Assembly: GCA_021815205.1 (NCBI GenBank)
Contig: JAKAHD010000001.1
Span: 89,247 to 153,246 of the forward strand
Source: a bacterium
GTDB taxonomy: Bacteria > Patescibacteriota > Minisyncoccia > UBA6257 > GWB1-50-10
Reading direction: 5' to 3'
DNA: 64,000 nucleotides
Translations under genes and position numbers: made by a program
Part shown: in pieces, positions 432-54,138 of the stretch
How the letters are laid out: each line of letters begins with the position of its first letter
Position numbering within the stretch: the stretch's first letter is position 1
Notes under the pieces: generated by a model
The model's database searches: none
What the model was told of the DNA's origin: nothing
The model's input: only the letters and a program-made list of their open reading frames with translations

Positions 432-554
432 GTCATTTGCATCCCGCAAAAAGCGGATGCGTAATTGGTAATTAGGTTGTTCGTTCGGTTCATGACGACC
501 TAATTTCCATGAATTACTACCAATTTCTTCGCGGTGGTATAATGTAACAGATCT

Positions 555-1601: not shown

Positions 1602-1605
1602 TTAG

Positions 1606-1696
1606 CTACGAAATACGAATTTTGTACGAATATACGAAAACGAATAGAATACATGAAGAATTATTCGTATATTCGTAATCAATTCGTAATTCGTAG
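1606..1696 (+). repeat. hairpin-rich leader repeat (family R3) copy 1, immediately 5' of the amidohydrolase start codon
   Basis: Nested inverted repeats 'ctacgaaatacgaatt...tacgaatatacgaaaa...ttcgtatattcgta...aattcgtaattcgtag', followed by 'agagaaattccATG'. Related copies at 13065-13177 and 57443-57546. Confidence 0.7.
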
Positions 1697-1705
1697 AGAA
1701 ATTCC

Positions 1706-3175
1706 ATGAGTATTCTCATTAAAAATGGAACGGTCTATGACGGCACGGGCGCGCCGCCGCAGAAGATGGATATCTTGATCCGCGAAGCGCGGATCGTCCG
1801 TTGCGGAACGCTCTCCAAGGATAGCGCGGAGACGCTTCTTGACGCGACGGGAGCGATCGTAGCGCCCGGATGTATTGATACGGTGTCCGGCGAAGGAGTG
1901 CACGGCGGTTTTGATCCGGACGCGGATACAAAACTCCTCGAGAAGGGAGTCACAACAATCCTTGGTGGGGTAAGCGGCATTTCTTCCGTCCCGTTCTCTT
2001 CGAGGACGGGATCATTGATGCGGGAGTGGAGCGCGGAGCGGCGTTGGAACGTGCATTGGAACAGCGTGCGAGAGTTTCTCCGCGTGCTCGAGAGGCGCCC
2101 CCATACGCTGAATTTCGGAACGTTCGTCGGTCTCGGGACGCTTCGGAGCGCCTGCGGCGTACCGTATGGAAACGACATGACGTTTCGCGAGCTCGAATCG
2201 GCAACGGCGTTACTGCGCAGGAGTCTTGCGGAAGGAGCCTTCGGCCTTTCAGCCCATCTCTCCATGCCGCATTCCGAGACGATTGCATTTCACGAACTAG
2301 TGCGACTTTTCAAGGTGGTTGCGGAAAAAAAAGGAACAGGTATCCTTGAGGCGCGTTTCCCCGACAAGGGCGCAATTCCGGCGCTCGAAGAGTTTTTCGA
2401 TCTCGCGCGTTCGTCCCATGCGCGCGTCGTCCTCCATAACGCGCAATCGCTCTTCGGAGGGAACGACAAAGAGGAGGCGCTTGCGTTCCTTGAACGCGAG
2501 ACGGCGAACCTCGATGCGTATTTTGATACCGTTCCTTTTCCTTCCCTGCGGCTTCCGCTTACGGCATTTCTGCCCCGGTGGCTCCGCGAAGGGAATCGCG
2601 CGGCAATGGAAGCGGCGATGCGGGAGCGGCACGGAAAAGAACGCCTGCTTGCGCATTTCAAGAACACGATGAAAGGGAAAGGTGAGAAGCTTGTGATCGC
2701 GGATGTGCCGCCCCCGCTCAGTTTTCTTCGCGGTACGACGCTCGCCGCTTTTGCGGAGCACCACGGCGTTTCGCTTCAAAGAGCCCTGTATCTTTTCATG
2801 CGTCTTACGAGATTTCGCGCGCATCTACTCGTACCACAACCGCACACGCGAATCTTCGAGGCATTGCTCGCGAATCCGCATGGAATAGTGACGGGGGATT
2901 TTAAGGCGCTTCTTGCTCGTGCGGCAGACGACGAACGCGTGCCGCTTGAGAAGTGGATAAGGAAGATGACGGGACTGCCCGCGGAGAAGTTTCGTATCCC
3001 GAAGCGGGGAGTCCTCAAAGAGGGGAACTTCGCGGATATCGTGGTGCTCCGCGATGCGAAGCCGGAGACGGTGATCGTGAACGGTGTGCAGACGGTCCGC
3101 GATGGAGTGTCGCTTCACGGCAGGTACGCTGGGCGTGTACTCGCGCGCGAGGCGCAGAGCGGTAACATACAATGA
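1706..3175 (+). CDS. amidohydrolase-family protein (D-aminoacylase-like); metal-binding HxH appears degenerate
   Basis: N-terminus (ILIKNGTVYDGTGAPP...IREARIV...LDATGAIVAPGCIDT) and C-terminus (KEGNFADIVVL) resemble the amidohydrolase/D-aminoacylase fold. The expected 'HxH' is replaced by 'TVSGEG'. Confidence 0.45.
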   Translation: MSILIKNGTVYDGTGAPPQKMDILIREARIVRCGTLSKDSAETLLDATGAIVAPGCIDTVSGEGVHGGFDPDADTKLLEKGVTTILGGVSGISSVPFSSRTGSLMREWSAERRWNVHWNSVREFLRVLERRPHTLNFGTFVGLGTLRSACGVPYGNDMTFRELESATALLRRSLAEGAFGLSAHLSMPHSETIAFHELVRLFKVVAEKKGTGILEARFPDKGAIPALEEFFDLARSSHARVVLHNAQSLFGGNDKEEALAFLERETANLDAYFDTVPFPSLRLPLTAFLPRWLREGNRAAMEAAMRERHGKERLLAHFKNTMKGKGEKLVIADVPPPLSFLRGTTLAAFAEHHGVSLQRALYLFMRLTRFRAHLLVPQPHTRIFEALLANPHGIVTGDFKALLARAADDERVPLEKWIRKMTGLPAEKFRIPKRGVLKEGNFADIVVLRDAKPETVIVNGVQTVRDGVSLHGRYAGRVLAREAQSGNIQ

Positions 3176-8150: not shown

Positions 8151-8270
8151 GAAGGGGAGGGTGTTATGACGCGTCATAACACCCCTTAGTAGACCCCCAC
8201 ACCTATACTAGGTTGTGGTGGTAAACCAGTGCCATTAAGATTATTAGTCTACCAATGGCGTATATAAGAG
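8151..8270. repeat. intergenic conserved element (family R1) copy A, containing a perfect 24-bp palindrome GGTGTTATGACGCGTCATAACACC
   Basis: Palindrome at 8159-8182 followed by 'cccacacctatactaggttgtggtggtaaaccagtgccattaagattattagtctacc'. The same about 110-bp element, with a 100-bp insertion, occurs at 48408-48600. Confidence 0.7.
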
Positions 8271-11259: not shown

Positions 11260-11336
11260 AGGTCATGGTGTAGCAATATTGAAGCCGTGCGAATCTTTGA
11301 TTCGCACGGCTTTGTTTCGTTAAAAACTTCTCCTTC

Positions 11337-12469: not shown

Positions 12470-12618
12470 CGACGAGCGAGAGAGCCAAATGAAAATGGAT
12501 ACATTTTCATTTGGGCCGAGCGATGTCGGAACAAAGGTTGAATACCTCGCGGCGTGCCGCGAGGGCGGACGAGCGAAGCGAGTTCCGCGAATACCGCGGG
12601 GCTTGCCCCGCGGAACCT

Positions 12619-19155: not shown

Positions 19156-21342
19156 CTATTCGCGCAGGCGGGGTTCGACGCGTTTAAGGAGCACGGCGTT
19201 CGTGGCCACAATAATGGAAGAAGCGGACATAAGGAGCGCGGCGATCTCCGGCCGCAAGGTCCAGCCAAGGGGGTGGTAGAACACTCCAGCAGCAACGGGA
19301 ATGGCCAGCATGTTATAAATCGCTGCCCAAAAAAGATTTTGCTTCATTTTAACGACCGTCGCCTTGCTCAAACGAATCGCGGCTACGATGTCGAATGGAT
19401 CAGATTTCATGAGGACGATGTTCCCGGTTTCAATCGCAACGTCGGTGCCCGCGCCGATCGCGATGCCGATATCGGCTTGCGCCAAGGCGGGCGCATCGTT
19501 CACGCCGTCGCCCACCATTGCTACGAACTTCTTCTCGTCCTGCAGTTTTTTTACGTAACTCGCCTTGTCCTCTGGGAGCACTTCCGCGAACACACGGTCG
19601 ATGCCGAGCTCTTTGCTCACCGCTTCCGCAACTTTTGCGTGGTCGCCGGTGATCATCACAACTTCGATGCCCATATTTTTCAATTCCTCGATGCTCTTTT
19701 TCGCGCTCGGGCGCACCGTATCCGCGACCGCGATGACGCCGGCAATCTTGCCATCAATGGCGAGCATGCTCAAGGTTTTGCCCTCTCCCGCGAGCCGGTC
19801 GATCGTCGCCCGGGCGGTTTCAAGATTTACACCGCTCGCATTCATAAGCTTCTCGTTGCCCGCAAGGATGCGTTTACCGTCGATCACGGCCTTTAAACCA
19901 TATCCAGCAACCGATTCGAACTGCGAGGACTTGACAAGCCGAATGTTTTTATTTGCCGCCTCATCGACGATGGCTTTTGCGATCGGGTGGTTCGAGCCGA
20001 TTTCGATGCTCGCCTCATATTTCAAAATTTCTTCTTCCTTCACGCTATTCAAGGGCGCGATATCAGTCACCTTCGGCTTGCCGAGGGTTAACGTTCCCGT
20101 CTTGTCCAGCACGATCGCCGTAAGACGGGAGGTATTTTCGAGTGTTGCTGCGTCCTTAATTAAAATGTTGTGCTTTGCGCCGATGCCGGTGCCGACTGCT
20201 ACCGCCGTCGGTGTGGCAAGCCCCAAGGCGTCGGGACATGCAATAACGACTGTTGCCACGGCAAAGGTTAACGCGGTAAGCAAGTTCGCACTGCCGATAA
20301 AATACCAACCGAGGAATGCGGCGATGCCGGAACCAATCGCAACAATCACCAGCCGTCCCGCCCAAATATCAGCAATGCGCTGACCGGGAGCTTTGGAATT
20401 CTGGGCGGTCTCCACCATTTTGATGATTTGGGCAAGCACGGTTTCCGAGCCGACTTGTGTGGCTTTGAATTGAATCGTGCCGGTGAGATTGACCGAACCG
20501 CCCACCACCTTGTCGCCGATCGTCTTTGAGATCGGTATAGATTCGCCCGTCACCAACGATTCGTCAATTGATGTTTCGCCCGAGGATATTTCGCCGTCCA
20601 CCGGAACCTTGTCGCCGGGTCGGAGTACCACACTATCGCCATGAATAATTTCCGCGCTCGGAATAGTAATCTCTTTGCCGTCCCGAATCACATTTGCTTT
20701 GGGCGGCACTAGATCAAAGAGGGCGCGCAAGGCATCCGAGGTGCCGCGGCGTGATTTCATCTCCATCCAGTGGCCAAACAAGACGAACGTAACCAAGAGC
20801 GCAGCGGCTTCAAAAAATGTTTCTTCGCCGCCGACGAGTGTGAGTAGAACGCTGAAAAGATAGGCCGCCAAAACGCCGGTCGCGATTAAGACCGCCATAT
20901 TAAGCTTCTTTGCTTTGAGCGAGTAGTAGGTGCCGGTAATAAAGATTGAACCAGTCCAAAAAACGATTGGTGTCGTGAGAATTAAGAGCAACCAATTGAT
21001 TGGAATGGGGGTTGGCAAATGTAACTTAAAAATAGTTGTGCCAACCGGCGAATACAGGAAAATAGGAACGGAGAGGAAAAGTGAAATGAAAAACCGGCGG
21101 CGCATATCCCTTTCCATCTGTTTGGCGATTGCTGGGTTGGTCATGGCCGCTTCATGATCGGTATGGCTCATTTTTTGCATGTTGTGACCAGTATGAGCAT
21201 CAACTTCCATCGGAATTAAATCCATACCACATCCGGGGCATTTGCCGGGCGCATTTTTAATGACTTCCGGGTGCATGGGGCAGGTGTAGAGAGTTTCTTT
21301 TGAATTGTGGTGATTATGGTTATTCATATTATTTATTTTCAA
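19156..21342 (-). CDS. copA: heavy-metal (Cu+-type) translocating P1B-type ATPase with a CPD transmembrane motif
   Basis: DKTGTLT, MVGDGVNDAPAL, TGES, and the Cu(I)-class TM signatures YN (AAIYNML) and MSASS. The TM6 motif reads IACPDALGLATP (codons tgt ccc gac), not CPC. N-terminal CPMHPEV...CPGCGM Cys4 metal-binding motif. Confidence 0.85.
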   Translation of the reverse strand: MKINNMNNHNHHNSKETLYTCPMHPEVIKNAPGKCPGCGMDLIPMEVDAHTGHNMQKMSHTDHEAAMTNPAIAKQMERDMRRRFFISLFLSVPIFLYSPVGTTIFKLHLPTPIPINWLLLILTTPIVFWTGSIFITGTYYSLKAKKLNMAVLIATGVLAAYLFSVLLTLVGGEETFFEAAALLVTFVLFGHWMEMKSRRGTSDALRALFDLVPPKANVIRDGKEITIPSAEIIHGDSVVLRPGDKVPVDGEISSGETSIDESLVTGESIPISKTIGDKVVGGSVNLTGTIQFKATQVGSETVLAQIIKMVETAQNSKAPGQRIADIWAGRLVIVAIGSGIAAFLGWYFIGSANLLTALTFAVATVVIACPDALGLATPTAVAVGTGIGAKHNILIKDAATLENTSRLTAIVLDKTGTLTLGKPKVTDIAPLNSVKEEEILKYEASIEIGSNHPIAKAIVDEAANKNIRLVKSSQFESVAGYGLKAVIDGKRILAGNEKLMNASGVNLETARATIDRLAGEGKTLSMLAIDGKIAGVIAVADTVRPSAKKSIEELKNMGIEVVMITGDHAKVAEAVSKELGIDRVFAEVLPEDKASYVKKLQDEKKFVAMVGDGVNDAPALAQADIGIAIGAGTDVAIETGNIVLMKSDPFDIVAAIRLSKATVVKMKQNLFWAAIYNMLAIPVAAGVFYHPLGWTLRPEIAALLMSASSIIVATNAVLLKRVEPRLRE

Positions 21343-21535
21343 TAGCTTGGTTTGTGATCTCTAAATTGCAACCGTGATGTTCTTTGCACCATGTTTCGCA
21401 CTTTTTCGCTTGCGTTTTCTCTTTATAATGCAAACCGCACTCTGGACACTTATGTGATTCCTCCTCGACTTTTTCGTTATGATTTTTGTGATCCATATAA
21501 TTTATATTTGTTTTACAGATTTTAACTTTTTCCAA
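21329..21535 (-). CDS. small zinc-ribbon protein (novel family) overlapping the copA start
   Basis: HKCPECGLHYKEKTQAKKCETWCKEHHGCNLEITNQA is homologous to the N-terminus of the 49345-51162 protein (YQCEACGFQY...KCEAWCKEHKSCNTEITAHA). Confidence 0.5.
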   Translation of the reverse strand: MEKVKICKTNINYMDHKNHNEKVEEESHKCPECGLHYKEKTQAKKCETWCKEHHGCNLEITNQAIENK

Positions 21536-24735: not shown

Positions 24736-25710
24736 TTATATGCCACACCCGTCCTGCTGGCGCTGTGGCGCTGGGGCTGTTCCACCTGTATCTACACCGC
24801 ATCCGCTCCCGCCTCTCTCTTGTCGCGTTTGGGGGACTTGAGCGGCAATTCTTGCAAATCCGGAACCGCTTGAATATTCCGCGCTAAGAAGCATTTGCGG
24901 AGTTACACTTTTTACATCAATACCTTTTATTTTTAGGTATTGTGCAATGGTCTCGTATTGATCCGGGAACCAGGCTCTGTTGGCCGTTATGGCCGCATTC
25001 CACATCTCTTCCCCTGTTCTCCCTTGCGATGCCAGGTATTCAAGAAGCCCGAGCATTGCCATGCCGTGATTGCAATCCGGGAAATACGTTGAATTATTGC
25101 AGCAGGGCCGGTAAATTCCTTTCGCGATCTTCTCCACAAGCGCCTGCTGATCTGACGTGAGAGGGGCCAAGGCGTGCTTGTCGTAGTGATCCATCACCGA
25201 CCCCGTAGTAACCGTCCAACCGCCGACCGATGCCATGTTGGTCGGTCCGCCGTAGCGCACGTCCATAATCGGGCCGGTCTCCAAAACCGGGTTTTTATTT
25301 GCCAGACCATAAGCCCAGAGCAAGTTCAGCTCTGTCACTTGAGAAAGCTTGGCGGGATTGATAGTGCCATTCGCAATCAAGGCGGCAAGCATTTTCTTTT
25401 CTGTTTCTAAGGGCAGGATTTTTCCTCCGTCAACCAGGGTTGCCTGGCCGTTTTGCGAAGCCGCATTTTCTGCCGTCTGCGTCTCCGGGGAGCGATTCTC
25501 GTTGTTATAGATCATAGCTCCCGCAAGCATGGCTCCCGCAATGACAATGGCAATCGGGATCATATATCTGTTGCCGAACTCTTTAGGTTTCTCCTGTCTT
25601 GATCCCTCCTGTATCTCGTATTCCGTTTCGTGTTCCGTCCCATTAGAAATTTTCGTATCGGTGAGATTTTCATTTTTTTTCTTATCCATATTTTTATACC
25701 CGTTACCCAT
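24736..25710 (-). CDS. secreted/membrane-anchored protein carrying a novel Cys-rich domain (YRPCCNNSTYFPDCNHG ... GGSGCGV C-terminus)
   Basis: TM/signal MIPIAIVIAGAMLAGAMIY, then an about 250-aa domain homologous to the C-terminal domain of the 49345-51162 protein. Start may be the internal MDKKK. Confidence 0.6.
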   Translation of the reverse strand: MGNGYKNMDKKKNENLTDTKISNGTEHETEYEIQEGSRQEKPKEFGNRYMIPIAIVIAGAMLAGAMIYNNENRSPETQTAENAASQNGQATLVDGGKILPLETEKKMLAALIANGTINPAKLSQVTELNLLWAYGLANKNPVLETGPIMDVRYGGPTNMASVGGWTVTTGSVMDHYDKHALAPLTSDQQALVEKIAKGIYRPCCNNSTYFPDCNHGMAMLGLLEYLASQGRTGEEMWNAAITANRAWFPDQYETIAQYLKIKGIDVKSVTPQMLLSAEYSSGSGFARIAAQVPQTRQERGGSGCGVDTGGTAPAPQRQQDGCGI

Positions 25711-27885: not shown

Positions 27886-28296
27886 TTAGTGCAAAGAGGG
27901 ACTAAGCTCAAATAGAGAAAGCCACGAGGTAATTTTCTGCTCACCGCCTAAAGAGTGAAGCGTCCCCTCTCGCCGCCGCTCTTGCAATAGTTCCGGTTTC
28001 GGAAGCAGTACATTTTTATACCATAGAACTATCGAAACCGAAGCAAGAAGCAGGGACACGATCAATGAAAGCCAGCCGGAGATCGGCGGCACCACGGTTG
28101 TCGTAAGCGTTTGAAAAGCGGAGACATGATGCAAAGTCATGTCCATGATGCTTGCGGGACAGGCCGTTCCGTCTATGGCCGAGGCAATACAACCGTCGCT
28201 TGAGCCACCCATCATCGCATGCTCAAAAAGCGAAAAACCAAAAACACCTATTCCGACAAAGCTCATTATTAGGAGTAGTGACGCAAGATATTTCAT
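27886..28296 (-). CDS. hypothetical membrane/secreted Cys-containing protein (first gene of second metal operon)
   Basis: 136 aa. N-terminal TM, central Cys/His cluster (DGCIASAIDGTACPASIMDMTLHH), C-terminal TM. Confidence 0.4.
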   Translation of the reverse strand: MKYLASLLLIMSFVGIGVFGFSLFEHAMMGGSSDGCIASAIDGTACPASIMDMTLHHVSAFQTLTTTVVPPISGWLSLIVSLLLASVSIVLWYKNVLLPKPELLQERRREGTLHSLGGEQKITSWLSLFELSPSLH

Positions 28297-28777: not shown

Positions 28778-30568
28778 TTATTGGGTGAGAATGTTTCCTA
28801 GGCTTTGCGCGAATGTCCGGAATGCGCCTAAGAGGTTTCCTCCAGAAGATGGCGCAGGAGACGGCGGCGTCATGCCGGCCGGAGGCATCTGGTTCATTGG
28901 CGGTATCTGACTTGCGGGCGGTTGTCCTTGCGGAGGCATCTGCCCCTGCGGAGGTTGTCCGTCTGAAGGAAGTTTTCCGTTCGGCGGGAATCGTCCCTGA
29001 AACTCTTGCATCATCTTTCGCAGATTGCTCTCATCGCCTTGACCCCCCCGATGATTATCTTTACCATCTTGCGGCATCATCTGAAGTTGTTGTTGATTTT
29101 GAAACTGCCCTCGCTCACCGCCCTGCCCTTCGAAGGGCGGCATCTGGCCTTGATTAGGTTGTCCGTTTGGCGGCATTTGTCCGCCAGGGAGGTTGCCTTC
29201 CTGCCCATTCATCATTGGACCGCCATTCGGAAACTTCCCATTCGGCATCTGCCCCTTAAAGGGAATCCCTTCAGGGGTAAGCTGACCTCCTCCTTGTTGC
29301 TCCCCTTGATGCATCTGCCGTATTGTTCCGGGACCTCCCTCTCCTTGCGCGCCTTGAGGAGGTATCATCTGCTCAAAACATTGGCGCATTTTTTCGCCGA
29401 TGCCCTGCGACGCCATCATCGTGCCGCTTTCCAGTTTTTGCATTATGTCGCTTCCCAACGCGTTCTTGAGGCAGTCGAGTACCGCAGGCGGCGCCTGTTC
29501 GAGTGATTGCCGCATCATCTGTCTTCCCTGTTCCATCTTCCGAAGGTCTTCCGGCGGTATCATGCCGTTATCCTTCGCAAACTGGAAACAGGTTTGTTGG
29601 TTTTGAGGATCCTTGCAAAACGTCTCGCACGCGTCTTTGCCGACACATCCGCCCGGACCCTTCCCTCCCGTCTTTTGCGCCATCTCGGCATCCTTTTCCG
29701 TCATGAAGCCCGCGGCCACCGCGAATTTCGTACACTCGTTCACGTGCGCGGGGTCGGCGCAATATTGATCACACGCTTCCTTCCCTTGGCACGCAGGCGG
29801 CTTCACGCCCGCCTGGAGCGCCTTCATCATTCCCTGCGACTGCTCCGCTTCCTTCGGCGTCATAAACCCAGCCTCTTTCGCGAACGTTATGCACTGGAGC
29901 ATGTGGTCGGCCGATGCGCTACAGTAGGTGTTGCACGAATCGCGTCCTCGACAGGGCGGCGGCGTAATACCCTTGTCAATCGCCGTAAGCACTTTCTCGG
30001 CGTTCTGGAGTTCTTCTCCTTTTAAAAATCCTGCCGCCTTGCCGAATGTGATGCACTCCTTCATGTGCGAAGGCTCGCTGCAATAGGTATCGCACGCGTC
30101 TTTGCTCTTGCACGCGGGCGGCTTCACGCCGCTTGCGATCGCCGCTTGTATCCGTTTTGCCTGCTCGAGCCCGCCGGGCGGCGTGATGCCCGTCTTCTCC
30201 GCAAACGCAAGGCATTCATTGATGTGATCAATGTTCGAACAATATGTCTTGCAGGAACCGAGGGACGTGCACCCGCCGGGACCCTGGAGCGATTTCCGCG
30301 CAAGCTCCTCGGCGACGTTCACCTCGTGCTCCGACATTAAGTTGTGGGCCTTCGCAAACGCAAGACACGCATCTGTGTGCGAGGCATCCGCGCAGTATGT
30401 TCTGCATGAGTCTTTACTCGAACAATTTCCGAGCTCGGCAATCGGATATTGGAGCGAGGCGAAAGGATTCGGTCCTGCAACCGTTTGCGCCCGAGCGATG
30501 TGCATGATCACGCCCGCGATCGTTATCCCTGTAGCAAGAATGGCGACCGTGAATAATTTCGTTCTCAT
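28778..30568 (-). CDS. secreted protein with six tandem Cys4(His) repeats and a Met/Gln/Pro/Gly-rich C-terminal tail (novel; putative metal-binding)
   Basis: Signal peptide. Six about 45-50-aa repeats of C-x2-[KR][DE][SA]C-x-[TQ][YF]C-x3-H-x3-C-x2-FA-x2-G. Then about 250 aa of low complexity with MM/MPP/QMPP motifs. Confidence 0.6.
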   Translation of the reverse strand: MRTKLFTVAILATGITIAGVIMHIARAQTVAGPNPFASLQYPIAELGNCSSKDSCRTYCADASHTDACLAFAKAHNLMSEHEVNVAEELARKSLQGPGGCTSLGSCKTYCSNIDHINECLAFAEKTGITPPGGLEQAKRIQAAIASGVKPPACKSKDACDTYCSEPSHMKECITFGKAAGFLKGEELQNAEKVLTAIDKGITPPPCRGRDSCNTYCSASADHMLQCITFAKEAGFMTPKEAEQSQGMMKALQAGVKPPACQGKEACDQYCADPAHVNECTKFAVAAGFMTEKDAEMAQKTGGKGPGGCVGKDACETFCKDPQNQQTCFQFAKDNGMIPPEDLRKMEQGRQMMRQSLEQAPPAVLDCLKNALGSDIMQKLESGTMMASQGIGEKMRQCFEQMIPPQGAQGEGGPGTIRQMHQGEQQGGGQLTPEGIPFKGQMPNGKFPNGGPMMNGQEGNLPGGQMPPNGQPNQGQMPPFEGQGGERGQFQNQQQLQMMPQDGKDNHRGGQGDESNLRKMMQEFQGRFPPNGKLPSDGQPPQGQMPPQGQPPASQIPPMNQMPPAGMTPPSPAPSSGGNLLGAFRTFAQSLGNILTQ

Positions 30569-30890: not shown

Positions 30891-30920
30891 GAAGTTGAAC
30901 CTCCGCGGAGGTTCAACTTC
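30891..30920. promoter_or_regulatory. perfect 30-bp palindrome in divergent intergenic region (candidate operator)
   Basis: 'gaagttgaacctccgcggaggttcaacttc' is its own reverse complement. Lies between minus-strand 30840 start and plus-strand 30970 start. Confidence 0.5.
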
Positions 30921-46984: not shown

Positions 46985-47597
46985 GCGCTATTTTCTTGCG
47001 CAGATTTTTTATATGCACGTCGACCGTGTTGCTCATAGCGTTCGCGGCAAAATCCCACGCATGGTCATACAACTCATCGCGGGTTACCACCTTGTTGGGG
47101 TGGCGCATCAGATATTCCAATACCATAAACTCTTTGAGTGTGAGCGGAACTTCCTTCCCGGCGCATGTTACTCTTCTTGTTCCTGTATGTAAAGTAATGT
47201 CCTTGATGGTGAACTCATCCGGTACCATTGCGGCGGGGCGACGCAGGAGCGCGCGAATTCGGGCCGTCAGCTCATCAAATGAAAATGGCTTTATCAAATA
47301 ATCGTCCGCGCCGCAGTCAAGCCCCACAATGGTATCTTCGGTCGTGTCTTTCGCTGTGAGCATGAGTACTGGAATGGTAATATTGGCATTGCGCCAATCT
47401 TTACAGACGGATATGCCGTCCTTTTTTGGAAGCATGATATCTAGAATCACCGCATCGTAATCATGCATCCCGAACCCAATTCGTCGTGCGCCGCTTTCGC
47501 CGTCTAAGACGTAATCGGCGGCATATCCTTCTTGTACTAATCCCTGCTGTATTCCCGAGGCCAGTGTTTCGTTGTCTTCTATGATTAAGATTTTCAT
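46923..47597 (-). CDS. OmpR-family response regulator
   Basis: Start moved to MKILIIEDNE. Receiver domain (D...DIMLPKKDG), winged-helix C-terminus. Overlaps the kinase gene. Confidence 0.85.
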   Translation of the reverse strand: MKILIIEDNETLASGIQQGLVQEGYAADYVLDGESGARRIGFGMHDYDAVILDIMLPKKDGISVCKDWRNANITIPVLMLTAKDTTEDTIVGLDCGADDYLIKPFSFDELTARIRALLRRPAAMVPDEFTIKDITLHTGTRRVTCAGKEVPLTLKEFMVLEYLMRHPNKVVTRDELYDHAWDFAANAMSNTVDVHIKNLRKKIAHGNNEKVLETIRGVGYRLKA

Positions 47598-47628
47598 GGG
47601 TGTAGCATACACAATGAAGATGAAGCTT

Positions 47629-48249
47629 TCATGAAGATTGTTTCGCGGACGATCGAGAATATTTGACAATAATTCTAGTAAGAATGACCGCAACAATGAC
47701 CGCGAGAATAAAAATGCCGGCTCTCGTTGACCATGCCTCGATGACCCGCAACGCGCCGCCAAAGAAATAACCAAGAAACAAGTGCGCCGTTGCCCACAGA
47801 AAACCGCTCACGAGATTCCAGAGCAGGAACTGCCACTTGTTCATCTTTGAAAGACCGGCAATAAAAGGGATGATCGGTCGAAGCGGTCCGATGAATCTGC
47901 CCAAGAACACGCTCTTGCCGCCGTGCGTTTTGAAGAACCGCTCTCCTTTTTCCAAGTGCGCCCGCTTAAGCCATCGGTTTTCTTCCTTGAAGAACCTCGT
48001 TCCTTTCGTCCCAAGCCAGTAACTCAAGTTGTCGCCCAGTATCGCGCCTATTGCCGCGAACCAGATCAGATCGCCGAGATCAAGATAACCCCGGGAGGAG
48101 AGGAAACCCGCGAGGGTCACAAGGATCGCGCCCGGCACCACCGATCCGACAAATGCGAGCGACTCGGTGAGCGCGACGAGCAACACGAGCCAATACCCAA
48201 ACACGCCGAGGTGCTGGAGTGCGGGGAGTATTGAATTAATCGCGTTCAT
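47629..48249 (-). CDS. DedA/SNARE-associated family membrane protein
   Basis: VTLAGFLSSRGYLDL...AIGAILGDNLSYWLGTKG signature region. 206 aa. Confidence 0.75.
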   Translation of the reverse strand: MNAINSILPALQHLGVFGYWLVLLVALTESLAFVGSVVPGAILVTLAGFLSSRGYLDLGDLIWFAAIGAILGDNLSYWLGTKGTRFFKEENRWLKRAHLEKGERFFKTHGGKSVFLGRFIGPLRPIIPFIAGLSKMNKWQFLLWNLVSGFLWATAHLFLGYFFGGALRVIEAWSTRAGIFILAVIVAVILTRIIVKYSRSSAKQSS

Positions 48250-48407
48250 TGGTGTAGTTATTGTACCAAGTTAGAACCTGTTTCCAAAATCCATAACAGA
48301 AGACGGATTTTTGCGGGACATATTCTGCGGGGGGTAGGATCCCGGATGAATTTAGGATACGGCACCGTGTGCGGTGCCGTATCTTCGTTTAAGGAGGATT
48401 GGGAAGA

Positions 48408-48600
48408 GAGGTGTTATGACGCGTCATAACACCCTTTGTAATTCTATGCCAAGTTATAACGCCATGGCATTATAACTTGGTATATAACCTTCTTACTAAC
48501 TTATGTGACGATCGTCACATAAGTTAGTAACCCTCACGCCTATACTAGGTTGTGGGGGCAGACCGGCGCCATTAAGGTTATTAGTCTACCGAACGGTGCA
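48408..48600. repeat. intergenic conserved element (family R1) copy B with two extra long palindromes
   Basis: Same GGTGTTATGACGCGTCATAACACC palindrome and 'cctatactaggttgtggggg...gccattaaggttattagtctacc' tail as 8151-8270. Inserted 38-bp perfect palindrome 'ttactaacttatgtgacgatcgtcacataagttagtaa' and near-palindrome 'ccaagttataacgccatggcattataacttgg'. Confidence 0.7.
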
Positions 48601-48728
48601 TGAAGATTACAGGTGCTGCACTTCAAAGTTGCATTCGCCTTTGTTGTTGATGATGAAAACGGAGATTTTATGGTAAAATCAAGCTATGTTCAGGGTGTAT
48701 AAGAATCTTTCAGAGAACCTCGTAATTT

Positions 48729-49361
48729 TTGTCTTCGCCTCGTTCGCTGACAAAAACTTCTAACGGAGTGAATAAAAAATTACCAACCGCAATTATTATC
48801 CTTGCTGGTATCGTTTTGGGATACCTCTTTATCTCAAGTTCGCAACAGTTCAAGTTTGGACAACCGAAAGAACAAACACACAGCGGAATAGTAAATGAAG
48901 CATTGGCGGCCAAGTTTGATTACTTAAGCAAAAACGGAAATTCATCTTGTTCAGCAGTGTTTCGCGATTCTATCGCCTCAAAATCAGATGGCGCCCGACT
49001 ACAAGGTTCATGCTGCAGCCCCATGAGCATGCACCGCTATCGCGAGCAAGTCGAAGCGCTTAAAAGATACAGCAATATTAAAGAAATCCCTCCCGACCCT
49101 TACGACATTCAGGCCGGACTTGCCAAAATACTCATGTCCCATTATGGCGACGAGCTCTCGCCGGAACAGCAAAAGGTCTACGACTACGCCATGCAAAACT
49201 CAAGCGAGAAAGGGCCGTGCTGCTGCAAATGCTGGCGGTGGAATACGTATGGCGGTTTAGCAAAAATACTTATTACAAGATATAGCTTCACTGGCGAGCA
49301 AGTAACCGAAGTGTGGAATTTATCCGACGGCTGCGGCGGCGACAGTGAGCATCATCACTAA
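48729..49361 (+). CDS. Cys-rich hypothetical secreted protein
   Basis: Track start is TTG. A GTG preceded by 'cttctaacgga' (VNKKLPTAIIILAGIVLGYLF) is a plausible start. Cys clusters SSCSAV, GSCCSPMSMH, GPCCCKCWRW, DGCGGDSEHHH. Overlaps next gene by 17 nt. Confidence 0.45.
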   Translation: MSSPRSLTKTSNGVNKKLPTAIIILAGIVLGYLFISSSQQFKFGQPKEQTHSGIVNEALAAKFDYLSKNGNSSCSAVFRDSIASKSDGARLQGSCCSPMSMHRYREQVEALKRYSNIKEIPPDPYDIQAGLAKILMSHYGDELSPEQQKVYDYAMQNSSEKGPCCCKCWRWNTYGGLAKILITRYSFTGEQVTEVWNLSDGCGGDSEHHH

Positions 49362-51162
49362 TATGACAAAGGTGATTCAAAAAGAAGACAAAAAATTATA
49401 TCAATGTGAAGCGTGCGGCTTCCAGTATACAGATGATTCGACCTCGCTCATCACAGGGAAAGAGTGGGCGGAAAAATGCGAAGCGTGGTGCAAAGAACAC
49501 AAGAGTTGCAATACTGAGATAACTGCGCATGCCGTTCCACAAGACAGCGAACCTGAAAAAAGCGAGCTTAACGCCGTTCAAAGCAAAACATCAGAGGCGT
49601 CTGCCGATCCGCTTGCGGGTAGAACTTCTAACAGGGTCAAGCCGGAAGACGTTAAGTTTCTGGCCCGTTCGATAAGCTCAAAGCCGGCTTTGAGTCGTAT
49701 CGAAGGGATGACAAGATTTTTCTACGGTCTTGTCGGCATCGCCTCATCCCTTGCCTTTTTTCTTATCTTGTACTGGGCATTACGACTTGATTCAACAATC
49801 ACGAACATAATCGCCAACACCTACAGCACCCCGCTCTACTTCTGGCCGTACGTTACTCTGACGCTCGGCGCGATTGTGCTCTTTGGCGTCAATGTTTCTC
49901 TCCTTGTATATCGCTGGAGAAAGTTCGGACCGCCACGATTCAAAACAGAAGCCGGCGGCGGAGCAGGAACACTTTTCGGCATTGCGGCCTCTGCGTGTCC
50001 TGTTTGCGGGTCAACCCTGCTTTCGGTAATTGGCATTGCCGGAGGGCTTGCCGCATTTCCGCTTGGCGGGCTTGAACTTAAAGCATTGTCTTTTGGATTT
50101 ATGGTATTGCCAATTTGGCTAATAAGAAAGGACTTGTCCGCCAAGGCCTCAGTGTCGGCGGGAGCCTCGGCACAGGCGGGCGAAAGCGGCATATGTCCTC
50201 TCCCAAGAGACCACCGCTTCAAAGAATCTGATCGGCCGTGGCTTTTAGCGCTTCTCGCCTTGGTAATTGTTTTGTCGCTTATTAGCTGGAATTGGCTTAA
50301 GACCGAGCCGATTATCGCCAAAGCCCTTGCTCAAAACCGCATCTTGGACTCAAGCTACAACGCAAACATTTCGGCGAAAGGAGATAAACTCATTAATGAA
50401 GTAGTTGCGCAGGTTCTACCGGAGAAAGGGTTCCAAAGTAAAATCGCGCTCGGCGATAGCGTCCTGAAATTGGTGCAAAACGGCGTGATTGATCGAGATA
50501 AGTTCCTCGCGATTTATGAAGATCGCGGCGGTCTGCCCGATGCGCTAAAAAATGTGCTTGATAGCCCCTCGACAAAACCAATTCTCCTTACTCGCGAGAA
50601 TGCAAACTACTATATAAATCTCATGTGGCCGTTGGGGCTTGCAAACTACATGTCGTCTAACAAGAAAAGCCCTATTAGTGGTAAGTCGCTCTTTCACTTT
50701 GCTTCGACTGGCGGCTGGAACTTGGGAAAAGAAGAAAACGGCGGCGCGTACTTCAACAAATTTAAGATTGCTAAACTAACACCGGAGCAAGAGGCGCTGG
50801 TCACGAAAATCGCCCAAAGTACCTATCGCCCCTGCTGTAATAACTCAACGTTCTTTCAGGATTGCAATCATGGCTCGGCTCTCTTGGGACTTTTGCAACT
50901 CGGCGCGTCCCAAGGTTTAACTGAAGATGAACTCTATCGTGAGGCGCTTGCATTCAATTCGTTTTGGTTTCCTCAAAACTACGTTCAGACCGCGCTCTAT
51001 TTCAAAGCGACGAAAGGCACTGATTGGAATGAGATTGATCCAAAAATGGTGATGGGAAAAGATTTTTCTTCCGCGAGCGGTTGGTATACCAACATTGACG
51101 CGGAAGTGAAACGGCTCGGCCTTGTTCCACAGCAAGAAGGCGGCGCAGGTTGCGGAGTATAA
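49345..51162 (+). CDS. fusion protein: N-terminal zinc ribbon, 4-TM region with membrane CPVCG, C-terminal novel 'PCCNNSTFFQDCNHG...GCGV' domain
   Basis: N-terminus homologous to the 21329-21535 protein. C-terminal about 300 aa homologous to the 24736-25710 protein (shared LW..GLAN, GGW, YRPCCNNST[YF]F.DCNHG.A.LGLL, SQG, WFP, GG.GCGV). Confidence 0.6.
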   Translation: MSIITNMTKVIQKEDKKLYQCEACGFQYTDDSTSLITGKEWAEKCEAWCKEHKSCNTEITAHAVPQDSEPEKSELNAVQSKTSEASADPLAGRTSNRVKPEDVKFLARSISSKPALSRIEGMTRFFYGLVGIASSLAFFLILYWALRLDSTITNIIANTYSTPLYFWPYVTLTLGAIVLFGVNVSLLVYRWRKFGPPRFKTEAGGGAGTLFGIAASACPVCGSTLLSVIGIAGGLAAFPLGGLELKALSFGFMVLPIWLIRKDLSAKASVSAGASAQAGESGICPLPRDHRFKESDRPWLLALLALVIVLSLISWNWLKTEPIIAKALAQNRILDSSYNANISAKGDKLINEVVAQVLPEKGFQSKIALGDSVLKLVQNGVIDRDKFLAIYEDRGGLPDALKNVLDSPSTKPILLTRENANYYINLMWPLGLANYMSSNKKSPISGKSLFHFASTGGWNLGKEENGGAYFNKFKIAKLTPEQEALVTKIAQSTYRPCCNNSTFFQDCNHGSALLGLLQLGASQGLTEDELYREALAFNSFWFPQNYVQTALYFKATKGTDWNEIDPKMVMGKDFSSASGWYTNIDAEVKRLGLVPQQEGGAGCGV

Positions 51163-51272
51163 CCCCGCCTCCGGAGGACGCGGCGGAAAGAGGGAACAAG
51201 TTATACCCCACGAATAACTCCTATTCACAAACAGAGAACAAAAACACCATCCTTGATGAGTGGTGTTTTATC

Positions 51273-51345
51273 TGGTGCGGGATACGGGAATCGAACCCGT
51301 GCCTCAACCTTGGGAAGGTCGCATCCTACCACTAAACTAATCCCG
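51273..51345 (-). tRNA. tRNA-Gly (anticodon CCC), CCA encoded
   Basis: Acceptor GCGGGAU/AUCCCGC, T-arm ACGGG-UUCGAUU-CCCGU, anticodon arm CGACC-UUCCCAA-GGUUG, 3' ACCA present. D-stem weak (wobble pairs). Confidence 0.65.
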
Positions 51346-51413
51346 CCTACATTTGCCCCGGCAAACTTCGGCGGGCAAGCCCGCAAAGATGACCGGAGTT
51401 GAACGAATGTATC

Positions 51414-51722
51414 TTATTTCTTGGTGCTTGTTGATGAGCTTGCGGTGCTTGATGAAAGTCCGGGGACGACAATAATAAGCTTTTCGCCCGGCGCGACGTA
51501 GTTCGTTTGCGATTTAAGCTCGTTCACCAGATTCTGCGGATTTTGGTAATATTCTATCTTGTTTTGGAGTTCATGGTTCTGATCCTCGAGTTCTTTGAGT
51601 TGCTGTTCCATGGTCCCCGTGTGAGCTTCGAGGCCGCGCTTCGAGTTTTCGAGTCCTACCAACCCTCCTACGAGGAGGAGCACCACAATGACGAAGAGAA
51701 TAGGTCTCCATGCCCGCATCAT
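51414..51722 (-). CDS. FtsB/DivIC-like septum formation initiator (TM + coiled coil)
   Basis: 102 aa. N-terminal TM (ILFVIVVLLLVGGLVGL), then heptad-like LEAHTGTMEQQLKELEDQNHELQNKIEYYQN. Confidence 0.4.
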   Translation of the reverse strand: MMRAWRPILFVIVVLLLVGGLVGLENSKRGLEAHTGTMEQQLKELEDQNHELQNKIEYYQNPQNLVNELKSQTNYVAPGEKLIIVVPGLSSSTASSSTSTKK

Positions 51723-51828
51723 GTGTATTATACATCAATTGACTTTAGAAGCAGATCACGCCGATGAAACGCAGATGAACGCAGACGTAACCTCTGGTTC
51801 ATTTGTGTCGTTTCTATGTTGGTTATCT

Positions 51829-54138
51829 CTATTTTTTGAGAAGTTCTTTGAATAGATGCGGCGGGATGCGGACGTGTGCGCGTGCCTTGAGGCGCTCCTT
51901 CCCTTTTTTCTGCTTCTGCCACAGCTTCATTTTTCTCGTCCGGTCCCCTCCGTTTTTCCCAAAGTTGCCGAGTTCTTTCCGGAGCGCGGGGATGTCTTCG
52001 CGTGCGATCACTTTTCCGTGGTCCTTCGCCTGAATCGGCTGAGCGAACTGCTGTTGCGGGAGCGTCTTCTTCAGGCGCTCGACGAGCTCACGCGCTTCGT
52101 ATTGCAGCGTGCTCTTCGGAAAGAAGCGCGAGAGCCCCGGGATGATTTCTCCCGCAATCGCGATGTCGATCTTTACGATGTCGGCCTTCATGTAGTCCGC
52201 GAGCTCATAACTGAACGAAGCGTAGCCGGCGGTCGCGGATTTCAACTGGTCGTCAAAATCACTTACGAGTTCCGCAAGCGGCATGATTGCCTTGATTTCT
52301 GTTTGGTTTTGGAACGTCTCCGTCATGATGTTCGAGAATCTGAATTTGTTCTGGAGCGGGTAGATATTATTCAGAAATTCCGGCGAGGTGAGGATTACAA
52401 TCTTCACCATCGGTTCCCAAATCGCTTCGTATTCTTCAGGGATTTCTTCGGGCTTCACAATCTCGATCCACCCCCCTCTAGTTTTCACTTTATAAAGCAC
52501 CGAAGGAAATGTACTCACGGTCGTAACATGGAATTCGCGCCGGAGGCGTTCCGCGGTAATCTCGAAGTGAAGGTGCCCCAGGAATCCGACCTTAAATCCC
52601 CGCCCCAAGACCTCGTTCTGGTCCGGTTCGATATGGAGTGCCGAGTCATTGAGCCGCAGTTTATCGAAGCTTCGCTTCAGAAGATCATACTCGTCGTTGT
52701 CCTCCGGGTAAAAGGACACGAACACAACCGGTTGCGGCTCTTGGTAGCCGTGCAGCGCAAACGTTTTTGGATTCTGGCATTTGGATTTTGAGCTTACTAT
52801 CGTGTCCCCTATCTTCACGAGCGCAATATCCTTGATGCCGGTCGCGATGTACCCGATCTCTCCCGTTCCGAGTTTCTGTGTCGCGGTCAAGGGCGGAGCA
52901 AAAAAACCAACTTCCTTTATCTTCGAGGAAGCGCCGGATGCCGCAAGCGTAATAATGTCCGTTCCGTTTACCGTGCCTTCGAAGACGCGCACCGACGCGA
53001 TCACCCCCTTGTGATCGTCGTAGAAGGAATCGAAAATGAGTGCCCGCGCTGGGGCCGCCGATACTCGCTGATTTTGAGCTGATGCACGCTGATCCGTTTC
53101 TATCTCGACCGGTGAAGGTATTCGTTCAATGATTACTCGAAGCAGATCAGAAACCCCTTCTCCCGTTTTTGCGGAGACCATCATTATTTCATCGTCGGAT
53201 ATGTTCAGAAGTTCCGCGACCTCGTGCCGGATGCGCGCAAGCCCCTCCGTGTCTCCCCGCGCTTCGAGAATATCGATCTTATTTACCGCGCCGATGATCG
53301 TAAGTCCCGCACTGCGCGCCAAGTGAAGGTTTGCAAGGGTCTGTGCCTGGATTCCTTGGGTTGCGTCCACAAGGAGAATACCGCCCTCGACGGCCGCCAA
53401 GGCGCGCGACACCTCGTACGAGAAATCGGAGTGCCCCGGAGTATCAATCAAGTTGAGGATATATTCCTCAACTTGCGCGGAAGGTCGCGGAAGGGACGCG
53501 GAATCGCGCGGAATTTCACGGGCTGTGTCGTATACGACTCTTTGTATGTCGAGAGTCTTCGTTCCGAAATTAATGAGTAGCGCAAGTTTGTAGTCTGACC
53601 CCTTGAGATAGCTCCATAGCTGTTCTGTCTGTGGGCGGCCTATTTCCGGTAATGCTTTCAGCTCGATAAGTATTTTCTCTTCAATTATAAAATCCGGTTG
53701 GTAGGAACCGATTTTCTTGCCGTCGTAAAAAATTCCAATGTTTTTTTCGCTTTCGAACCGCAGGTTTCTCTTCTTGAATTCTTCTGCCAGGGCATTATGA
53801 TAGACGATCTCTTTATGTCCTAGACCTAGCCTTTTTCTTACCTCGAAAGCGGCGCCGCGTATTTCATAGGTAATGGTTTCGTATAGTAATTTACTTTCTG
53901 CGTCATTCCGCGTATCATTCTGCGTCATTCTGCGGTGAGGATGATAACGCATCCTCACAGGGGCCATTTTAATGGTGATCCCCCGCTCCCGTTCGAGTTC
54001 AAGCTGATCAAGATATTGTTCCTGCATGTGGCGCGTATCCACCGTGCCCGTAATTTCAAGGAACCGATCCGCGAGGGTTGACTTCCCGTGATCGATATGG
54101 GCGATGATGCAGAAATTTCTGATGTAGACTTCGTTCAT
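51829..54138 (-). CDS. lepA: translation elongation factor 4 (LepA) carrying an in-frame about 158-aa GxxExxY/PD-(D/E)XK-domain insertion in the G domain
   Basis: NFCIIAHIDHGKSTL, ERERGITIK, DTPGH, NKID and LepA C-terminal domain are all present. 769 aa versus about 600 typical. The extra segment lies between ITIKMAPVRMRY and EEYILNLIDTPGH. Confidence 0.85.
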   Translation of the reverse strand: MNEVYIRNFCIIAHIDHGKSTLADRFLEITGTVDTRHMQEQYLDQLELERERGITIKMAPVRMRYHPHRRMTQNDTRNDAESKLLYETITYEIRGAAFEVRKRLGLGHKEIVYHNALAEEFKKRNLRFESEKNIGIFYDGKKIGSYQPDFIIEEKILIELKALPEIGRPQTEQLWSYLKGSDYKLALLINFGTKTLDIQRVVYDTAREIPRDSASLPRPSAQVEEYILNLIDTPGHSDFSYEVSRALAAVEGGILLVDATQGIQAQTLANLHLARSAGLTIIGAVNKIDILEARGDTEGLARIRHEVAELLNISDDEIMMVSAKTGEGVSDLLRVIIERIPSPVEIETDQRASAQNQRVSAAPARALIFDSFYDDHKGVIASVRVFEGTVNGTDIITLAASGASSKIKEVGFFAPPLTATQKLGTGEIGYIATGIKDIALVKIGDTIVSSKSKCQNPKTFALHGYQEPQPVVFVSFYPEDNDEYDLLKRSFDKLRLNDSALHIEPDQNEVLGRGFKVGFLGHLHFEITAERLRREFHVTTVSTFPSVLYKVKTRGGWIEIVKPEEIPEEYEAIWEPMVKIVILTSPEFLNNIYPLQNKFRFSNIMTETFQNQTEIKAIMPLAELVSDFDDQLKSATAGYASFSYELADYMKADIVKIDIAIAGEIIPGLSRFFPKSTLQYEARELVERLKKTLPQQQFAQPIQAKDHGKVIAREDIPALRKELGNFGKNGGDRTRKMKLWQKQKKGKERLKARAHVRIPPHLFKELLKK
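53470..53960 (-). mobile_element. inserted element inside lepA encoding a GxxExxY (23S rRNA IVS-protein-like) domain, with inverted-repeat ends
   Basis: Insert encodes ...YEIRGAAFEVRKRLGLGHKEIVYHNALAEEFKKRNLRFESEKNIGIFYDGKKIGSYQPDFIIEEKILIELKAL. Low-coordinate end has 'cgcggaa' x4 (53475-53520). High-coordinate end has 'tcattc(c/t)gcg' x3 plus an 8-bp hairpin gtgaggat/atcctcac at 53935-53958. The ends are mutually inverted (cgcggaat / attccgcg). Confidence 0.45.

Follow-up and report, generated by a model that had tools for sequence, protein, structure and literature searches.

What is the role of two adjacent genes whose products carry invariant cysteines and match no described protein family? 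We addressed this question for a locus in a 64,000-nt stretch of a patescibacterial genome (NCBI GenBank assembly GCA_021815205.1, contig JAKAHD010000001.1, positions 89,247 to 153,246 of the forward strand; hereafter the window, whose own numbering is used for all positions given without a locus name). Two forward-strand open reading frames (ORFs) of 210 and 605 aa, here called P210 and p605, had been presented in a preliminary description as a novel two-gene unit, possibly responsive to metal or redox state. We found that this two-gene module is genuine, widespread and unannotated. By analogy with MerP and MerT, we propose that the operon would act as a thiol-relay module for thiophilic metals, Hg(II) and/or Cu(I), a reading to which we give a probability of about one half.

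Both ORFs of the preliminary description exist (48729..49361, TTG start, 210 aa; 49345..51162, GTG start, 605 aa), but not their 17-nt overlap, which rests on GTG 49345. The identical public protein (P0001) has 599 aa and the homologues begin with M[TV]K, so the start of p605 is placed at ATG 49363, leaving a 1-nt gap after the P210 stop and a likely gene of 599 aa at 49363..51162. The likely P210 gene begins at GTG 48768 (48768..49361, ~197 aa), which matches MNKK, the commonest N-terminus among the homologues, and the ATG of the closest relatives; TTG 48729 falls within a 25-codon remnant ORF (48686..48763) of a different gene family, called 'MSGCPF' below. Public gene calls give P210 as 112 aa from an internal ATG (L001 5661-5999 and L002 523-861, related loci being numbered with L; the sequence is the same as in the window), with the membrane anchor and the first three invariant cysteines cut off. 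The locus is best explained as a short operon consisting of a putative promoter near 48647-48679, the remnant leader ORF, P210 and p605, and represents the minimal type of the module, with P210 and p605 only. It diverges from genes for a DedA/VTT protein, an OmpR-type response regulator and a HisKA kinase, as previously described. No intrinsic terminator was seen 3' of p605, and an Rfam scan of 47500-52000 returned only a transfer RNA (51276-51346, reverse strand), with no known riboswitch or small RNA upstream.

The cysteine clusters described for P210 were all recovered: SSCS (48942-48953), GSCCSPMSMH (49005-49034), GPCCCKCWRW (49212-49241) and the C-terminal DGCGGDSEHHH (49326-49358). They follow an N-terminal helix that forms the membrane anchor (about 48786-48833). 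At least 2005 homologues were found (56-76% identity, with alignments spanning ~94% of the full length), in which eight cysteines (C74, C95, C96, C164-166, C168 and C202, in the numbering of the 210-aa ORF) are invariant, together with M99, H102 and H208. This conservation shows that the ORF is coding, a point that the preliminary description had left to be settled by comparison with relatives. The AlphaFold2 (AF2) model shows the membrane helix followed by a domain made up entirely of helices, its confidence being low precisely at the cysteine segments, and the positive-inside analysis on the AF2 helices placed the domain outside; P210 is thus predicted from the model to be a signal-anchored, outward-facing, helical Cys-rich protein. 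It has no CxxC motif and no match to HMA.

Neither P210 nor p605 had a real match in Pfam or NCBIfam, and the same was true of their paralogues. Profile searches of PDB sequences returned nothing for either protein, and Foldseek found no PDB match below E = 0.1 with the good p605 model (predicted local distance difference test, pLDDT, 81.5) or the poor P210 model (pLDDT 61). The named matches of both families were labelled 'hypothetical', none having a Pfam domain on record. Two homologues bore the names 'US12 family' and 'DUF805/YhaH', which we disregarded because no Pfam domain is on record for them and because no matching family appeared when the window protein and ten homologues consisting of the membrane block only were scanned against Pfam. 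The module is therefore novel in the sense of lacking a Pfam, NCBIfam or PDB match. The relatives number in the thousands, nearly all on contigs labelled Candidate Phyla Radiation (CPR) or Patescibacteria, and no description of the P210 or p605 families in CPR was found in the literature that we searched.

For p605, at least 312 homologues were retrieved by a search that scored only the 8000 candidates with the most shared words, and an exhaustive profile search with its domains gave 1572 representative clusters. Most of these clusters correspond to the C-terminal domain after a single anchor and some to the membrane block alone; p605 is a fusion, since its C-terminal domain and membrane block also occur separately. 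The protein starts with a zinc-ribbon-like domain with five cysteines (49399..49512; CxxC ... C-x3-C-x6-C), which is optional, being missing in part of the homologues shown. The membrane block with transmembrane helices (TM) 1 to 4 follows (49684..50154) and includes the invariant ASACPVCGS of TM3, with Cys codons at 49996-49998 and 50005-50007, and the invariant FPLxGLELK of the external loop after it (50056-50082). A linker with the family consensus C-x4-5-C-P-x-P-x-D leads to TM5 (50155..50301). The C-terminal alpha/beta domain of ~260 aa (50374..51159, pLDDT mostly above 90) contains the invariant RPCCNNSTFFQDCNHG at 50827-50874 (family motif RPCCNNSTxxQDCNHG), and its flexible, disordered tail ends in Cys-Gly-X (Cys codon 51151-51153). 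The topology predicted from the positive-inside rule and the AF2 helices puts the zinc ribbon and the linker on the cytoplasmic side and exposes the C-terminal domain to the exterior. Occasional fusions in relatives join the C-terminal domain to rhodanese (three cases), HMA, cupredoxin or DsbC_N.

We also observed three short in-frame inserts in p605 that most homologues lack: DDSTSLITG (49432-49458), ARSISSKPALSRIEGM (49663-49710), which holds an 18-bp perfect palindrome (49677-49694), and VSAGASAQAGES (50152-50187). Comparable inserts (LPAEASAQAG, ALRQAQGGEQSRT and PKESLRDPTGQ) are present at the same or different positions in P210 and p605 homologues. All of these may be in-frame miniature repeat insertions.

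We next considered the genomic setting of the two genes. A scan of species-representative genomes gave 269 stretches with a P210 relative, of which 80 loci were analysed, the operon-context counts covering ~77 of them; the informatively labelled contigs belong to Microgenomates and Parcubacteria lineages. A gene for a CxxC membrane block lay within 1.5 kb of P210 on the same strand in 62 of the 80 loci, and 48 of these 62 genes were within ~100 nt of P210 or overlapped it. The two-gene unit of the preliminary description is thus conserved and tightly coupled. The partners were large blocks downstream (31 loci) or small proteins with four TMs, either upstream (26) or downstream (3), and L051 and L068 each have a single ORF that joins the small membrane protein to P210. 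The small proteins are marked by GIGCAACGS...LPLRGGEFG and by a Cys at the C-terminus; a third version of the block, also small, has GTATCASC and a C-terminal CxxC. Both small variants are homologous to the block of p605 (hhalign 98%, E = 2e-13, and 98.7%).

Genes associated with metals and thiols recur around the module. Over the 77 loci, we counted DsbA-like (29), ArsR/SmtB (16), P1B-ATPase (16), MerA (15), multicopper oxidase (10) and CsoR (7) neighbours, so that the metal or redox link suspected earlier becomes a strongly suggested metal/thiol role. Three types of operon recurred: ArsR/SmtB, P210, p605-like and MerA; MSGCPF, P210, (VNG protein), p605-like and SANGG protein; and (MSGCPF), DsbA-like, small membrane protein, P210, VNG protein and (CsoR, CopA-type ATPase, multicopper oxidase). 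The order ArsR-P210-(p605-like)-MerA was present in L009, L011, L013, L015, L017, L027 and L061. Judged by their sequences, the MerA genes of the module operons are genuine: they scored 522 and 471 bits against the equivalog model TIGR02053 (cutoff 454) and carry both GGTCVNVGCVPSK, with the redox-active CxxxxC, and the C-terminal SCC vicinal Cys pair. Queries with MerT, MerP and MerC did not reveal any clear canonical transporter in the ArsR-P210-(p605-like)-MerA operons, the sole match being an HMA-type ORF ~1 kb 3' of merA in L015. Relatives of the kinase or response regulator of the window were not found near the module in any of the ~77 loci, and DedA was found in 2; conserved regulation by the neighbouring two-component system was rejected on this ground.

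Several further observations were made at these loci. The 'VNG' (26 loci), 'MSGCPF' (19) and 'SANGG' (6) families that recur beside the module are unannotated, with no Pfam or NCBIfam match (example genes at L003 6452-6988 and at L042 5472-5903 and 9526-10116), and a gene with a GDCCVxC (seleno)protein domain lies near the module in 3 loci. In L090, a close relative, an operon with DsbA-like, VKOR and rhodanese genes (449-2262, reverse strand) diverges from P210-p605 with ~24 bp between the start codons, and P210 is apparently leaderless, with TGGTATATT 7 nt before its ATG. L041 contains, directly 5' of merA, a gene (1616-1999) for a 127-aa membrane protein with GVCPLCW, which matched Pfam MerC below threshold (18.3 bits, E = 0.0035); CPR mer operons may therefore hold several divergent transporter types. 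Finally, the P210 relatives of L056 and L081 are on contigs labelled Betaproteobacteria and Casimicrobiaceae, as a result of either horizontal transfer or mis-binning. In L056, the gene belongs to a copper cluster of high GC content and proteobacterial appearance (DsbA-like, TlpA-like, Sco-like, multicopper oxidase, CcdA) and has no membrane-block partner.

The closest analogy that we found among known systems is with MerT and MerP of the Tn501/Tn21-type mer operons. The module resembles MerT in the order of an in-membrane Cys pair, a second helix, a cytoplasmic Cys pair and a third helix, an outward-facing Cys protein is encoded next to the membrane protein, and in Microgenomates-labelled relatives the pair sits between a metal-sensing regulator and a true merA. 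The module has CxxC (CPVC, CAAC or CASC) in the topologically equivalent helix where MerT has a vicinal CC in its first helix, and in place of the cytoplasmic Cys pair of MerT there is C-x4-5-C-P-x-P or, in small variants, the C-terminal CxxC, with one Cys in the window copy. Unlike MerT, p605 comprises five helices and is extended by a zinc ribbon in the cytoplasm and by an external domain of 260 aa. For P210, an all-helical Cys8 domain of ~160 aa is predicted, whereas MerP has the HMA ferredoxin-like fold with GMTCxxC. The regulator is of the ArsR type and not MerR, and merA is not in this window.

We compared the membrane proteins with MerT and MerC reference sequences from annotated plasmids and with the Pfam profiles. 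Neither p605 nor its membrane block matched MerT PF02411 at E <= 5. The third small variant (L032) reached 21.8 bits (E = 2e-4, profile positions 7-76) and a protein of L079 reached 21.1 bits, both below the gathering score of 32.9 bits. With hhalign, the small membrane proteins gave 48-54% against MerT at a score of 32, compared with 15 +/- 4 (maximum 27.5) when MerT was locally shuffled and 14-21 when it was reversed, and phmmer with MerT gave E = 0.002 in 4048 ORFs. The alignment of MerT with the small proteins runs colinearly from the helix with the cysteines through the following one to the cytoplasmic Cys, and that with p605 is colinear too, pairing ASACPVCGS with ASACCLGP and DCxxGxCPxP with ACKPGEVCAIP. 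As a working analogy, the resemblance to MerT is strong. MerC, which has GCAAC in TM1 and C-x4-C near the C-terminus, is resembled by the stand-alone small partners in the number of helices (four), in the GCAAC-type CxxC within one of them and in the cytoplasmic Cys or CxxC at the C-terminus. The CxxC of the module is however in TM3. We rejected membership of MerC: the hhalign value was ~20% and confined to the GCAAC motif, and p605 and the small proteins did not match PF03203.

The DsbD/CcdA and ScsB-ScsC relays, including the Scs proteins of copper tolerance, are likewise built from membrane cysteines tied to outward-facing thiol proteins, and DsbA-like, TlpA-like, CcdA and copper-resistance genes lie near the module as well. 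Both cysteines of the module are however in one helix, whereas in DsbD and CcdA they are divided between two pseudo-symmetric helices, with one essential Cys in each. P210, the partner, is not thioredoxin-like, and the module did not match PF02683 or PF13386 (DsbD_TM, DsbD_2). There was no Pfam match either to VKOR or DsbB, four-helix oxidoreductases that depend on quinone and have a loop Cys pair as well as CxxC, and VKOR is a separate gene in the relative L090. The zinc ribbon may be compared in function with CopZ and NmerA, as it is small, cytoplasmic and Cys-rich and is either fused to the membrane block or encoded by a small gene abutting a CopA-type ATPase; it differs in being zinc-ribbon-like with five cysteines, not an HMA domain, and has no Pfam match.

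On these grounds, a route for the metal can be proposed. We infer that the module binds metal ions, and also which ions these are and in which direction they move, as follows. Metal would be captured outside by the anchored P210, through its His-rich tail and the eight cysteines that are invariant (arranged as CC, CCCxC and single Cys), and handed to the CPVC pair within TM3 of p605. It would then move to the cytoplasmic linker cysteine(s) after TM4 and onward to the five-Cys zinc ribbon, so that the order TM3, TM4, cytoplasmic Cys linker and TM5 would mirror the TM1 Cys pair, TM2, cytoplasmic Cys pair and TM3 of MerT. The external C-terminal domain (CC...C-x-H and the tail Cys) may provide a second outward-facing thiol or metal site. 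The cytoplasmic sink would be MerA in the relatives that have one and otherwise the Cu(I) homeostasis machinery (CsoR, CopA). In this genome, copper or general soft-metal buffering is more likely, because the window contains no MerA and has CsoR and a CopA-type ATPase as partners close by. The link of the module to Hg/Cu resistance islands is well supported, and a MerT-like mechanism is plausible. Only tentatively, since we think it somewhat likelier to fail than to hold, do we extend the proposal to P210 and the CxxC membrane block in general, with or without the C-terminal domain: these would be unrecognised CPR-wide Hg(II)/Cu(I) thiol-relay transporters that replace MerT/MerP in apparently transporter-less ArsR-type mer operons, with two new metal/thiol-binding folds (Cys8 helical and CC...C-H) and a new chaperone-like zinc ribbon.

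A number of results weigh against the metal relay. The similarity to MerT extends to p605 only transitively and stays below threshold, so that membership of MerT is not established by sequence; p605 has no Pfam match to MerT, MerC or DsbD, and hhalign of its membrane block with MerT gave only 6%. In the linker of the window copy, the second Cys (50194-50196) is the only one left, the insert VSAGASAQAGES having replaced the first. The structure model of P210 is poor, and 18 of the 80 P210 loci show no membrane-block partner, some of them at contig ends. MerA was not found in the window, and import of a toxic metal would here be without an obvious sink. Finally, the most frequent neighbour is the DsbA-like gene and, in L090, the DsbA-like/VKOR/rhodanese operon stands beside the pair; both fit a redox role equally.

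Such a role is the main rival to the metal relay. The module would in that case be a transmembrane thiol-disulfide relay, functionally like DsbD/CcdA/ScsB or DsbB/VKOR, in which the in-membrane CPVC carries reducing or oxidising equivalents back and forth, with the cytoplasmic ribbon and linker on one side and the external P210 and C-terminal domain on the other, keeping or repairing envelope thiols under copper or mercury stress. Several observations speak for this explanation: in many of the 29 loci with a DsbA-like gene (CPFC; Thioredoxin_4/DSBA), that gene directly precedes those of the small membrane protein and P210, genes for CcdA/DsbD_2, TlpA-like and glutaredoxin-like proteins recur nearby, with CcdA-like and TlpA-like genes also in the main island of this window, the C-terminal domain is fused to DsbC_N and rhodanese, and the L090 operon diverges from the pair. 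We nevertheless hold it to be rather unlikely, given that P210 has neither CxxC nor a thioredoxin-like fold, its CC, CCCxC and His tail resembling metal sites, and that no Pfam match to DsbD_TM, DsbB or VKOR was obtained. CPR genomes, moreover, already have VKOR with a DsbA-like gene, and the fixed position between an ArsR-type regulator and MerA better fits metal delivery. Alternatively, the module could be an envelope metal buffer or chaperone without transport of metal through the membrane, the membrane block being only an anchor or scaffold. Cu(I)/Hg(II) would then be sequestered outside the cell by P210 and the C-terminal domain, or these would load or unload CopA, multicopper oxidase or other cuproproteins. 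The outward-facing domains rich in Cys and His, the association with CopA, CsoR and multicopper oxidase and the missing MerA of this window speak for this explanation, as do the partnerless P210 loci, which include L010 (ArsR-P210-MerA) and the proteobacterial-type copper cluster of L056. The in-membrane CxxC and the cytoplasmic Cys motifs are, however, conserved over three divergent versions of the block, which a mere anchor would hardly account for, and many members have the cytoplasmic zinc ribbon; we regard a pure buffer as improbable.

We then examined the region upstream of P210, where the preliminary description had seen a palindrome-rich control region. The palindromes themselves were confirmed, and four lie within 175 bp: a 28-bp hairpin at 48356..48383 (12-nt arms and a 4-nt loop, GATACGGCACCG-TGTG-CGGTGCCGTATC) with no good T-run after it, a 24-bp perfect palindrome GGTGTTATGACGCGTCATAACACC at 48410..48433, a 46-bp near-palindrome (87%) at 48442..48487, the core of which is the 32-bp near-palindrome reported before, and a 38-bp perfect palindrome at 48493..48530, the longest perfect one found in the window. 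Palindromes are abundant in the window as a whole, with 39 matches to perfect inverted repeats with arms >= 9 nt (~20 distinct palindromes; 1.45 in shuffles) and 16 with arms >= 12 nt (0 in shuffles). Further long palindromes or hairpins are found at 30891-30920, 11282-11312 and 12485-12514, one of them a 30-bp perfect palindrome and two with 13-14-nt arms. The repeat copy B reported upstream of P210 was recovered, its other copy A being located at about 8157-8253 on the forward strand, ~140 nt 5' of a gene for a 129-aa membrane protein. In copy A, the 24-bp palindrome (8160-8183, identical to that of copy B) is directly followed by the shared segment; in copy B, this segment (48524..48591, forward strand, ~68 nt, 87% to 8186-8253) comes after an insertion of ~90 bp that bears the 46-bp and 38-bp palindromes. 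The shared segment includes an imperfect inverted repeat CACnCCTA-TAC-TAGGTTGTG, and for a possible RNA structure in the repeat, the two copies provide a single compensatory pair.

The putative promoter is a separate element at 48647..48679 (forward strand), conserved in sequence in L087, L088 and L089, with an extended -10 TGgTAAAAT at 48671-48679; its -35 is poorly spaced and it was missed by a consensus scan. The extended -10 ends 6 nt 5' of the ATG (48686) of the remnant ORF, which suggests that a transcript from it would be leaderless or nearly so. The remnant ORF (48686..48763, forward strand, MFRVYKNLSENLVIFVFASFADKNF*) ends 4 nt before GTG 48768. Aligned with L088 310-672, it keeps the N-terminus and the last codons of the MSGCPF gene, and because both ends are kept we attribute it to an in-frame internal deletion; a gene of this family precedes P210 in 19 related loci.

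The palindromes could be operators through which the CsoR-like protein or the OmpR-type regulator controls the pair, and their number, the recurrence of the 24-bp palindrome 5' of a second gene and the site between divergent transcription units, a typical operator position, speak for this. We think it unlikely. The palindromes are absent 5' of the module in the relatives L087-L090, and the 17-nt repeat motif CCTATACTAGGTTGTGG had four matches in metagenome contigs, none with flanking similarity, which are chance matches. The 46-bp and 38-bp palindromes are on an insertion relative to copy A, and the cluster lies ~140-260 bp 5' of the conserved promoter-like element with its -10. OmpR-type regulators normally bind direct repeats, and the two-component system is never linked to the module in other loci. 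The cluster is explained at least equally well as a palindromic repeat specific to this lineage and of the miniature-element type. The view of the palindromes as the control region of the module was therefore not upheld: the cluster is a lineage-specific repeat with no tie to the conserved biology of the module, and may either contain operators or represent a palindromic repeat element.

Other genes of the window are related to parts of the pair. The proposed paralogy with part of the main island was upheld for three elements, namely the zinc ribbon, the C-terminal domain and the remnant ORF. Neither P210 nor the membrane block has a paralogue in the window. The C-terminal domain recurs behind a signal anchor at 24736..25710 (reverse strand, 43% identity), and an intact MSGCPF family member, paralogous to the remnant ORF, lies at 27886..28296 (reverse strand, hidden Markov model E = 3e-8). 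The zinc ribbon recurs as a small ORF (21341..21475, reverse strand) whose end coincides with the start of the CopA-type P1B-ATPase gene (19156-21342); this abutment suggests a CopZ-like chaperone role for the paralogue. The ribbon is also encoded by free small genes in L019, L036 and L059.

Two further genes of the window were recorded. A 596-aa secreted protein of the main island (28778-30568, reverse strand) contains about seven C-x5-C-x3-C-x7-8-C repeats and a Met/Gln/Pro/Gly-rich tail, without a Pfam or NCBIfam match, and is probably another metal-binding envelope protein. LepA (EF4), encoded 3' of p605 at 51829-54138 (reverse strand), has 769 aa and carries a nuclease-like PD-(D/E)XK_3 (GxxExxY-type) domain in-frame within its GTPase domain (~53460-53945; Pfam order GTP_EFTU, PDDEXK_3, GTP_EFTU).

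MerA occurs in CPR, and the known transporters tend to be missing from ArsR-type mer operons (PMC8261052, PMC3466566). In the literature that we searched, no mercury transporter has been described for CPR bacteria that carry merA. The P210-p605 pair is a concrete and cloneable candidate for this missing step of mercury transport, and in the relatives the module occupies the place expected for the known mercury transporter genes. It also points to unannotated proteins of the CPR envelope, with thousands of sequences that have no Pfam or PDB relative. If the proposed relay is true, the module would represent a new branch or analogue of MerT-type thiol relays and define new metal-binding domains, and it would allow better annotation of metal-resistance islands in a large and poorly understood part of the bacterial tree.

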